DNA from: Callorhinchus milii
Taxonomy: Eukaryota
Assembly: GCF_018977255.1 (NCBI RefSeq)
Contig: NW_024704742.1
Span: forward strand, 98,830,001 to 98,894,000
DNA: 64,000 nucleotides
Direction of reading: 5' to 3'
Part shown: positions 41,175-63,223 of the stretch, piece after piece
Numbering within the stretch: position 1 is the first letter of the stretch
Layout: the number at the start of each line of letters is the position of its first letter
Made by a program: the position numbers and the translations under genes
Notes under the pieces: generated by a model
Seen by the model: only the letters and a program-made list of their open reading frames with translations
Database searches by the model: none
Told to the model about the DNA's origin: nothing

Positions 41175-41401
41175 TTAGTGCCTTGGCTGTCGAGGGACAG
41201 GGGCACGAGGACGAGGCCCTGGGACTCCTGGTCTTGGTTGTCCTGGTAAATGGGCCATTGATCTCGGCCCTGGTGGCTTTGTTACCACCATTCGCGGTGG
41301 TGGAGCCAATCTCACTTCTCTTCCATTTGGGGTTCTTGTTCCTCCACCGGTGACTGGCTGTTTATTGGCTTTTTTGTTTTTGTCCACACTTGCGTTTGCT
41401 C
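41175..41401 (-). CDS. TMC2: TMC2-like last coding exon, Pro/Arg/Gly-rich tail ending ...VPRQPRH*
   Basis: tttttttattcaag|GA GCA... in frame with ORF 41175-41387; TAA at 41175-41177. Confidence 0.85.
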
Positions 41402-62400: not shown

Positions 62401-63223
62401 ATTTTGTAGGTGAACAGATGCTTGTCTAAAGAACATTTAATAGCATTTTATAAACCATGGATATTGTAAACCATGGATATTATTCATGTTTGTTGTACAA
62501 TATTTCATTCACACAAATTTTGTGCACAAATGTTTAGAAGATTTTTCACTTCATGGCTGTTTGTGGGACATTGCTGTGTGCAAAGCGGCTGTTGCATTCA
62601 CCTTCAAAATGCACAGTTACTACGCTTTCCAGTAAATTTTGTGAAGCACTTTGGGGCATCCACCTGACATGAAAGGCATGTTATCAAACGCCAAGATTAT
62701 TTTAAGACTTTTATAAATAAACATTAAACTATCAGTATGCACCTGGAGTTCCTGCCCTTCTTTTTCTTTTTGTCACCATTTTCTTTCGCGTTTTTGTCCT
62801 TCTTGTTCCCTTTTTTATTTGATTGATTTTCCTTTTTATTGTCTTCATCCTTCTGCTTCTGATTAGCGTTGTTTCTGTTGTTCCTATTGTTATTGGCTGG
62901 TCGATTCTTTCCTGTCTTCTTACCTTTTGCTTCTGTTTCACTTTCACCATCACTAGTTTTACTGGTCTTTTTATTGTTTTTTGTTCTTGTCTTTGGCTTT
63001 TCAGCCTCTTCTTCACTATCTTCTTCACTCTCTTCATTTTTATTGTTCCTGCCATTCTTTCTTCCCCTGTTCTGGATCTGCGGTTTCCTTCTATTATTCC
63101 TTTGGTTGGGCTTTGCATCTTCTTCTGAATCTTCCTCATCCTCCTCAGATGCTTTAGCTATCTTTCTATTATTTCGTTGATTTCCTTTCTTCCTTTGTGG
63201 TTTTTTACTCTTCTCATCTTCCT
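41175..63223 (-). CDS. TMC2: Transmembrane channel-like protein, TMC2-like (probably tmc2a-type paralogue); 18 coding exons in the window, 5' exon(s) likely beyond 64000
   Basis: Hand-spliced complement join(63223-62743,62031-61879,60924-60834,59837-59756,58829-58723,57411-57313,56915-56773,55985-55838,52308-52120,51309-51130,50906-50760,50223-50095,49235-49168,47991-47752,46709-46584,43307-43229,42304-42193,41401-41175). All introns are GT-AG with compatible phases and no internal stops. TMC signatures: [49 protein letters not shown]. Confidence 0.85.
42193..42304 (-). CDS. TMC2: TMC2-like penultimate exon ([37 protein letters not shown])
   Basis: gaaag|CAA...G|gtgaga, 112 nt; phases 0/1 fit both neighbours. 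Confidence 0.82.
43229..43307 (-). CDS. TMC2: TMC2-like exon ([26 protein letters not shown])
   Basis: tatag|C...ATG|gtaagt, 79 nt. Confidence 0.94.
43909..45558 (-). mobile_element. L2-clade LINE, 5'-truncated, reverse transcriptase plus 3' UTR, young copy
   Basis: ORFs 44806-45579 and 44012-44830 carry [42 protein letters not shown] and LHWLPI; (CAA)n tail; TSD TAAACAA at 43909 and 45552. Confidence 0.95.
46584..46709 (-). CDS. TMC2: TMC2-like exon ([42 protein letters not shown])
   Basis: aacag|T...GT|gtaagt, 126 nt. Confidence 0.95.
47752..47991 (-). CDS. TMC2: TMC2-like exon ([48 protein letters not shown]...PSFDCGPFS)
   Basis: ttcag|G...AG|gtaatt, 240 nt. Confidence 0.97.
48625..48953 (+). 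repeat. Unclassified interspersed repeat, longest of 7 copies (may extend to ~48350)
   Basis: Shared gggtccccaagccttggctc...gatactcttaagcatggtgatgggtttcc...tcagacacccagctgac. Copies at ~28050-28331, 36845-37026, 43080-43187, 46805-47093, 48100-48140 and 56140-56195. Confidence 0.85.
49168..49235 (-). CDS. TMC2: TMC2-like exon ([23 protein letters not shown])
   Basis: tttag|CCT...TG|gtaggg, 68 nt. Confidence 0.95.
49630..50065 (+). mobile_element. DeuSINE-like SINE, near full length
   Basis: Same head, core and tail as 10025-10430. Confidence 0.8.
50095..50223 (-). CDS. TMC2: TMC2-like exon ([43 protein letters not shown])
   Basis: tacag|GAG...TTT|gtgagt, 129 nt. Confidence 0.96.
50760..50906 (-). 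CDS. TMC2: TMC2-like exon ([49 protein letters not shown])
   Basis: ctcag|TTG...ATG|gtaaat, 147 nt; N-glycosylation sequons NKT, NLT, NST. Confidence 0.95.
51130..51309 (-). CDS. TMC2: TMC2-like exon ([60 protein letters not shown])
   Basis: catag|GTT...CAG|gtgaga, 180 nt. Confidence 0.95.
52120..52308 (-). CDS. TMC2: TMC2-like exon ([63 protein letters not shown])
   Basis: gtcag|GAA...GAG|gtaata, 189 nt. Confidence 0.96.
52367..52848 (+). mobile_element. CR1-clade LINE 3' end (ORF2 C-terminus plus 3' UTR)
   Basis: ORF 52364-52762 has [30 protein letters not shown]...GHSFK...[10 protein letters not shown]; tail gatgggccgaatagcct...attctatgattcta; TSD CTATT. Confidence 0.92.
53560..54019 (+). 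mobile_element. Old degenerate L2 RT fragment, split by the younger L2 and resuming at ~55685-55810
   Basis: Decayed 'ADIINFSLS...[12 protein letters not shown]...SNLP.KVL...LCL..L' sequence; continues 'TVLSWFH' after the insertion. Confidence 0.75.
54020..55684 (-). mobile_element. L2-clade LINE, 5'-truncated second copy of the same family
   Basis: ORFs 55193-55810, 54861-55058 and 54121-54885 carry the same RT motifs; TSD TTCAA at 54020 and 55680. Confidence 0.95.
55838..55985 (-). CDS. TMC2: TMC2-like exon ([49 protein letters not shown])
   Basis: tgcag|A...AAG|gtaaat, 148 nt. Confidence 0.96.
56773..56915 (-). CDS. TMC2: TMC2-like exon ([48 protein letters not shown])
   Basis: tgcag|GGA...AC|gtgagt, 143 nt. 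Confidence 0.95.
57313..57411 (-). CDS. TMC2: TMC2-like exon ([33 protein letters not shown])
   Basis: taaag|GTT...GGG|gtgagt, 99 nt. Confidence 0.94.
58723..58829 (-). CDS. TMC2: TMC2-like exon ([36 protein letters not shown])
   Basis: tctag|GT...GAG|gtgggt, 107 nt. Confidence 0.95.
59756..59837 (-). CDS. TMC2: TMC2-like exon ([27 protein letters not shown])
   Basis: ttcag|AAA...A|gtaagt, 82 nt. Confidence 0.95.
60834..60924 (-). CDS. TMC2: TMC2-like exon ([30 protein letters not shown])
   Basis: gtcag|G...AAG|gtcagt, 91 nt. Confidence 0.95.
61879..62031 (-). CDS. TMC2: TMC2-like exon ([51 protein letters not shown])
   Basis: tgcag|T...AA|gtaatg, 153 nt. Confidence 0.93.
62743..63223 (-). 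CDS. TMC2: TMC2-like charged low-complexity N-terminal exon (acceptor uncertain: 63223, alternatively 63255, or ATG at 63281)
   Basis: K/E/N/R-rich ORF 62724-63281; donor AG|gtgcat at 62743 is phase 2 and joins the next exon in frame. Confidence 0.75.

Follow-up and report, generated by a model that had tools for sequence, protein, structure and literature searches.

During hair-cell maturation, mammals switch between two transmembrane channel-like genes, TMC1 and TMC2. Published statements on these genes are cited here by PMC number. Cyclostomes have a single Tmc12 gene, and the split into TMC1 and TMC2 is placed in the jawed-vertebrate stem (PMC7003098; PMC9060560). Teleosts have tmc2a and tmc2b, a pair ascribed to genome duplication (PMC7817542); in zebrafish both lie on chromosome 5, 39.9 cM apart (PMC5740173). 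Mammalian TMC1 sits opposite ALDH1A1, and Canestro et al. 2009 regarded tmc copies between tmc1 and anxa1 as teleost-specific and possibly tied to the loss of aldh1a1 (PMC2682703).

Which TMC gene stands opposite ALDH1A1 in a cartilaginous fish? We analysed a 64,000-nucleotide stretch of the genome of the chimaera Callorhinchus milii (the window), where a TMC gene is convergent with ALDH1A1. A preliminary description had proposed that this gene is a third hair-cell channel paralogue of the tmc2a type, lost on the mammalian line. The gene is already known: it is the annotated C. milii TMC2, neither tmc2a nor TMC1. Most probably it is the single orthologue of human TMC2, a predicted pore-forming subunit of the hair-cell channel, and stands in an ancestral TMC1-TMC2 tandem that tetrapods gave up when their TMC2 was relocated.

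The gene opposite ALDH1A1 belongs to the TMC2 clade

TMC2 gene, 41175..63269, minus strand: 18 coding exons within the window, a unique GT-AG chain that yields database protein P0001; RefSeq XP_007897575.1 lies in the same cluster.

P0001 carries the TMC domain PF07810 (precomputed annotation), and exon 14 matches C. elegans TMC-1/2 with an E value of 4e-19. In a maximum-likelihood (ML) tree of 39 rows and 673 core columns, the protein joins the shark and skate genes (support 100/100) within the TMC2 clade (99.9/100). At 24 diagnostic sites that separate TMC1 from bony-vertebrate TMC2 it is TMC2-like 17 times, TMC1-like twice and other in five cases, and a constraint uniting shark TMC2 with TMC1 is rejected by the approximately unbiased (AU) test (p=0.002). 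The assignment to a TMC2-type protein was therefore correct. The possibility, also raised at that stage, of a TMC1 in a species with no other TMC1 does not agree with this placement, nor with the presence in C. milii of a separate TMC1 (XP_007897552.1). Identity over the core amounts to 71% with human TMC2 (P0372), 75% with Xenopus tropicalis TMC2 (P0282) and 71% with C. milii TMC1.

Is the gene of the tmc2a type? The teleost 2a and 2b types are sisters (99.5/100), nested in the ray-finned fishes (99.9/100) beside gar and sturgeon, and the branching within TMC2 reads (sharks,((coelacanth,tetrapods),(sturgeon,gar,(2a,2b)))). AU tests reject the union of shark TMC2 with 2a (p=3e-4), of tetrapod TMC2 with 2b (p=1.9e-5) and of tetrapod TMC2 with 2a (p~0). 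Neither the tmc2a identity nor a tmc2a/tmc2b split older than the teleost duplication survives these results. The C. milii protein is equally identical to both teleost types (73-76%); it stands outside their duplication, as co-orthologue of both and member of neither.

AU runs used LG+F+G4 and JTT+F+R4; in a partial ModelFinder log, LG+R4 ranked first. Constrained trees came from a fast search, which may overstate rejection; the margins were 36-142 log units. The 2a and 2b labels combine database names with tree clades. Fast-evolving teleost rows (P0128, P0189, P0138, P0244 and the Channa second half) entered a FastTree run but not the ML and AU sets, and the same applies to the partial mammalian TMC1 rows; the ML and AU trees are thus without mammalian TMC1. 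Zebrafish rows are absent from the trees. Electric eel, swamp eel and other teleosts have additional, fast-evolving copies that resemble TMC2 or TMC1 (P0128, P0189, P0138, P0125); the tandem copies that were called teleost-specific in 2009 may be these.

The long charged N-terminus and the Pro-rich tail, which had been read as TMC2-specific traits, are present in every one of the 14 proteins compared, the TMC1 of shark, coelacanth, gar, turtle and chicken among them. Because non-mammalian TMC1 has them as well, they are no marker of a new paralogue, and tetrapod TMC2 shares them with the C. milii gene. Non-mammalian TMC1 (P0136, P0148) has about 950-980 aa with a TMC2-like Pro-rich tail. Mammalian TMC1 fragments (P0517, P0526, P0423) sit on a long branch (0.65), with 20 common changes at otherwise invariant sites; mammalian TMC1 is the odd one. 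Database names are an unreliable guide here: the label TMC2 or TMC3 stands on several entries of TMC1 type, and shark TMC2 goes by 2-A or 2-B without any rule (P0270, P0136, P0542, P0458).

TMC1 and TMC2 share a contig in most non-tetrapods and in none of the tetrapods compared

The separate TMC1 that the preliminary description had expected on the same contig is found there: XP_007897552.1 and TMC2 are both recorded on a 139,202,109-base C. milii contig. The two proteins have consecutive EukProt numbers and interleaved UniProt numbers, and TMC1 is probably the tandem sister of TMC2.

Across vertebrates, we took a matching size of the contig on record as a proxy for the same chromosome. By this measure TMC1 and TMC2 share one contig in 13 of the 14 non-tetrapod species having both on record: C. 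milii, coelacanth, gar, sterlet, paddlefish, three tunas, archerfish, two butterflyfishes, Centropristis and Siniperca. None of ten chromosome-scale tetrapod pairs is linked (Discoglossus, Pleurodeles, Alligator, Anolis, Hemicordylus, Paroedura and four birds); Neopsephotus, Pygoscelis, Nyctibius and Eudromia (scaffold-level or mixed assemblies) and ostrich were set aside as uninformative. The change had been assigned to the mammalian line. It must be older, for the genes are already unlinked in frog, newt, lizards, alligator and birds. Order and strand come from read-through gene models, which run from TMC1 into TMC2 in Acipenser sinensis and in Channa argus, the second gene of the latter being 2b-type. 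The eel genes tmc2a and tmc2b are on separate contigs, of 41.5 and 48.3 Mb, and one eel model continues from tmc2a into annexin A1. Both teleost copies thus retain neighbours of one ancestral block, which fits genome duplication. A long Polypterus model (P0535, 1331 aa), considered as a TMC1-TMC2 fusion, proved to be repeat-derived sequence plus TMC1 and was dropped as tandem evidence.

Does any species keep both a linked and an unlinked TMC2? Outside teleosts we saw none among the best 120 matches per search. The second TMC2 copy of paddlefish falls in the same 90% cluster as the first, and the only non-tetrapod among the best 120 matches to a caecilian TMC2 query is the TMC1-linked coelacanth copy.

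Probable origin of the TMC1-TMC2 tandem

These observations would be explained if a single Tmc1/2 gene beside ALDH1A1 underwent tandem duplication in the jawed-vertebrate stem. TMC1 and TMC2 would have stayed, in this order, on one chromosome in sharks, ray-finned fishes and coelacanth, until, once the coelacanth line had branched off, TMC2 was relocated a single time in the ancestry of tetrapods and left TMC1 facing ALDH1A1. The teleost genome duplication would then have copied the locus, giving tmc2a (beside anxa1 in eel) and tmc2b (behind tmc1 in snakehead). The order TMC1, TMC2 and convergent ALDH1A1, proposed earlier as ancestral for jawed vertebrates, is likely on the strength of the linkage in non-tetrapods. 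One-to-one orthology with tetrapod TMC2 is the most likely relationship; the C. milii copy is TMC1-linked and faces ALDH1A1, the tetrapod copy is unlinked, and 'same gene, moved' is favoured over 'third paralogue lost later'.

Such a tandem, kept in fishes and split in tetrapods, would explain the zebrafish arrangement and correct the reading of 2009. Like the copies of Canestro et al., the C. milii gene is a TMC2 in the gap next to TMC1; unlike them, it coexists with ALDH1A1, in a cartilaginous fish (PMC2682703). Since TMC2 and ALDH1A1 lie side by side in the chimaera, and the linkage recurs in gar, sturgeon and coelacanth, the basic tandem is neither teleost-specific nor itself the cause of aldh1a1 loss; extra teleost-only tmc copies beyond it may still exist. 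Given the mammalian switch between the two genes, the tandem also raises the question of enhancers common to TMC1 and TMC2. The TMC1-TMC2 arrangement is visible in public genome browsers; in the literature searched, mostly open papers, we found no statement of a tandem-then-relocation history, nor of the shark substitutions described below.

Several points weigh against this account. The deep nodes are weak (bony vertebrates 77/90, coelacanth plus tetrapods 39/60), and the trees contain no lungfish or cyclostome Tmc1/2 rows. A constraint separating all fish from tetrapod TMC2 survives the AU test (p=0.225). We compared 15 ways of rooting TMC2 among shark, coelacanth, tetrapods and ray-fins; that of the species tree was best in three model/data settings, yet four alternatives survive, among them one that joins coelacanth with ray-fins and ties with it (AU 0.57-0.64) and two tetrapod-first rootings (p 0.07-0.32). 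The contig-size proxy may mix assemblies, and Acipenser oxyrinchus is the sole unlinked non-tetrapod (108.7 vs 111.6 Mb). The adjacency and common strand of TMC1 and TMC2 in C. milii itself are likely by inference. Finally, only one of 118 mostly tetrapod TMC2 rows passes the score cut-off of the search that returned P0001, so a tetrapod-type second shark TMC2 could have escaped.

Could the linked fish gene and the unlinked tetrapod gene be different genes altogether? They might be two old paralogues, split before the radiation of jawed or bony vertebrates and reciprocally lost: tetrapods would have lost the linked copy, and sharks, ray-fins and coelacanth the unlinked one. The surviving all-fish constraint and rootings would fit such a history, as would the differing position of TMC2 in fishes and tetrapods. 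It demands three or four independent losses instead of one move, however, and no species showed both types within the searches described above. In log-likelihood the tetrapod-first rootings fall 8-13 units short, and their joint share is about 0.09-0.14 of the bootstrap by resampling of estimated log-likelihoods, while site patterns (five for bony vertebrates, three for all fish) are too few to decide. We consider this history unlikely. Less probable still is its extension to three jawed-vertebrate hair-cell channel lineages, in which the linked fish TMC2 is an ancient paralogue of tetrapod TMC2 whose transmembrane helices (TM) 3-5 were further rebuilt in cartilaginous fishes, with a Trp at a position where Arg causes human deafness; zebrafish tmc2a and tmc2b would then not be true orthologues of human TMC2.

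The proposal of a tmc2a-type gene, with tmc2b as the mammalian TMC2 orthologue and a split older than the teleost duplication, can draw on the presence of both zebrafish genes on chromosome 5, which is unusual for genome-duplication copies (PMC5740173). The 2a+2b clade inside the ray-fins and the three AU rejections given above oppose it, as do the separate eel contigs and the retention by both types of neighbours of the same ancestral locus, and we regard it as very improbable. We give equally little credence to a TMC1 orthologue, or a TMC1/TMC2 chimera produced by gene conversion between tandem copies. The gene does occupy the position of mammalian TMC1, and two diagnostic sites are TMC1-like, but the grouping of shark TMC2 with TMC1 is rejected and a separate TMC1 exists. 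Gene conversion left no sign at the protein level: in 14 windows of 48 columns, identity to the TMC1 of the same species never markedly exceeds that to gar or chicken TMC1. A single TMC2 that moved on the tetrapod line remains our preferred account.

Predicted structure and substitutions in TM3-TM5

Orthology predicts for C. milii TMC2 the role of a pore-forming subunit in the hair-cell mechanotransduction channel. Its AlphaFold model has a mean pLDDT of 67.8 with disordered ends, and the top four Foldseek matches are C. elegans TMC-1/TMC-2 structures (7USW, 7USX, 7USY, 8TKP), with E values of about 1e-30 and TM-scores of 0.73-0.77 on the target. The predicted fold is the same at 36-37% identity over about 650 columns; the nematode proteins differ as invertebrate Tmc123-type channels and in their disordered termini. 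In mouse TMC1 models, TM4-TM7 form the pore (PMC9278870; PMC6067890). The C. milii protein would accordingly be a TMEM16-like subunit of ten helices, in which cations pass through a TM4-TM7 groove once tip-link tension gates the channel. G538-M539 in TM4 and the invariant Asp in TM6 (D647) are retained.

Residue numbers of substitutions follow the RefSeq form P0272 (964 aa). The exons and codons concerned are:

52120..52308, minus strand: exon 9, 189 nt, predicted TM3; R488I, R512K, F516Y.

51130..51309, minus strand: exon 10, predicted TM4 and start of TM5; M539 kept; C541V, G565W, I567M, K589Q.

51276-51274, minus strand: C541V codon, exon 10.

51204-51202, minus strand: G565W codon TGG, exon 10.

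50095..50223, minus strand: exon 12, predicted TM6; D647 invariant; T654S.

Cartilaginous-fish TMC2 appears to carry a fixed substitution set of its own in TM3-TM5, which bony-vertebrate TMC2 lacks. Twelve cartilaginous-fish rows (11 species) have 16 majority changes in common at positions where 312 further TMC1/TMC2 rows are at least 97% invariant, whereas nine control clades have 0-4 such changes each. Two Rhinoraja entries, 99.8% identical, represent one gene. C. milii carries 13 of the 16. Near-invariant sites are changed at 17 of 332 in C. milii TMC2 versus 5 of 332 in C. milii TMC1 (Fisher p=0.015), and 11 of the 16 changes fall within residues 485-605, the predicted TM3-TM5 (p=2e-5, for an interval chosen after seeing the data).

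Trp stands at position 565 in all 12 cartilaginous-fish rows. M539 occupies what we take, by motif, to be the position of human TMC1 M418. W565 lies 26 residues further on, where equal spacing in a mammalian TMC1 fragment leads to Gly-Arg. A human variant table lists M418, G444 and R445, with G444R entered under profound deafness (PMC7767568). From the 26-residue spacing and the Gly-Arg match, W565 would correspond to the human TMC1 G444 site.

Does this burst reflect altered function? As an addition compatible with the relocation account, the TM3-TM5 changes may have remodelled cartilaginous-fish TMC2 before the chimaera-shark split, as opposed to relaxed drift; remodelling would mean changed gating, permeation or partner binding. 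The excess over the control clades, the conservation of the changes since, the difference between the two C. milii genes, the clustering in residues 485-605 and the uniform Trp at the site of G444R speak for it. Such bursts are not unique, however: in two mammalian TMC1 fragments 20 of 218 such sites carry common changes, which is a higher rate. Position 565 also tolerates change, with Met (alongside C541V) in a divergent swamp-eel copy and Ala in TMC3. Several of the changes are conservative, C. milii itself lacks three of the 16, and the stems of the control clades are shorter. We therefore put remodelling forward tentatively, as somewhat less probable than its absence. Either way, cartilaginous-fish TMC2 provides naturally occurring variants, the Trp at the G444-equivalent site among them, in helices linked with gating and permeation.

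Gene structure

The exon chain extends from 63269 to 41175 on the minus strand with AG/GT ends and was unique in an acceptor/donor site search. Its segments are:

Minus strand, exons 1-6: 63269/63223-62743, 62031-61879, 60924-60834, 59837-59756, 58829-58723, 57411-57313.

Minus strand, exons 7-12: 56915-56773, 55985-55838, 52308-52120, 51309-51130, 50906-50760, 50223-50095.

Minus strand, exons 13-18: 49235-49168, 47991-47752, 46709-46584, 43307-43229, 42304-42193, 41401-41175.

62743..63223, minus strand: exon 1, large, charged N-terminal region; AG before 63223; RefSeq N-terminus without match in the window.

41175..42304, minus strand: exons 17 (112 nt) and 18 (227 nt), end of the last helix and Pro-rich tail.

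Spliced, the chain is stop-free and translates exactly to P0001 (948 aa); the 240-nt exon 14 (47991-47752) is 100% identical to that protein. Nine motif strings named in the preliminary description were searched, and eight lie in frame on the minus strand; the ninth, SHFGSS, is split by the exon 4/5 junction and appears once the exons are spliced. The sizes given there for exon 9 and the last two exons were accurate. Sequencing contigs join exons 1-2-3 (X1), 2-3 (X5) and 3-4 (X2), from two studies and four runs guessed to be RNA, none being recorded as RNA; the evidence consists of contigs only, among which repeats are dominant. At exon 1, X1 runs off the stretch for nine letters, a weak sign that this exon is internal.

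Where does the coding sequence begin? The RefSeq protein XP_007897575.1 ('transmembrane channel-like protein 2-B', 964 aa) clusters with P0001, and its N-terminus (about 30 differing residues) has no good match within the 64-kb window (best E 0.36). An AG acceptor immediately precedes 63223. Together these two observations indicate one or more further TMC2 coding exons beyond position 64000. The segment 62743..63223 is likely an internal exon entered at the 63223 acceptor, with the first coding exon or exons past 64000. The Ensembl-derived models P0001 and P0273 start at in-frame ATGs just upstream of this acceptor, while RefSeq splices to upstream exons; the Ensembl-derived start (63223-63269) is likely an annotation artefact. 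The gene had been called intact with 18 exons, and the chain is indeed real and stop-free, but it is probably not complete in the window, since the RefSeq 5' end appears to lie outside.

Two similar reverse-transcriptase fragments resembling long interspersed nuclear elements (frames of 206-309 aa) lie on the minus strand at 44012-45600 (intron 15) and 54121-55813 (intron 8). Another, different retroelement-like frame occupies 52328-52762, minus strand, just upstream of exon 9.

The ALDH1A1 side of the locus

37204..41174, no strand: intergenic spacer, about 4 kb; no stop-to-stop frame longer than 86 aa.

5893..37203, plus strand: ALDH1A1 gene, first exon not located; convergent with TMC2; stop at 37201-37203.

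The Aldh1a1 synteny group of PMC10879103, which spans sharks, gar, coelacanth and lungfish, lists Tmc1, Cyp1A/D and Anxa1, and the paper's text mentions Tmc once and Tmc2 never. With no frame above 86 aa, the spacer at 37204-41174 gives no sign of an intact CYP1 gene between ALDH1A1 and TMC2, and annexin A1 was not found within the 64-kb window. The plus-strand neighbour matches ALDH1A1 best (97 bits, compared with 79 for ALDH1A3 and 76 for ALDH1A2), and its stop lies about 4 kb from that of TMC2, which bears out the convergent arrangement described at the outset.

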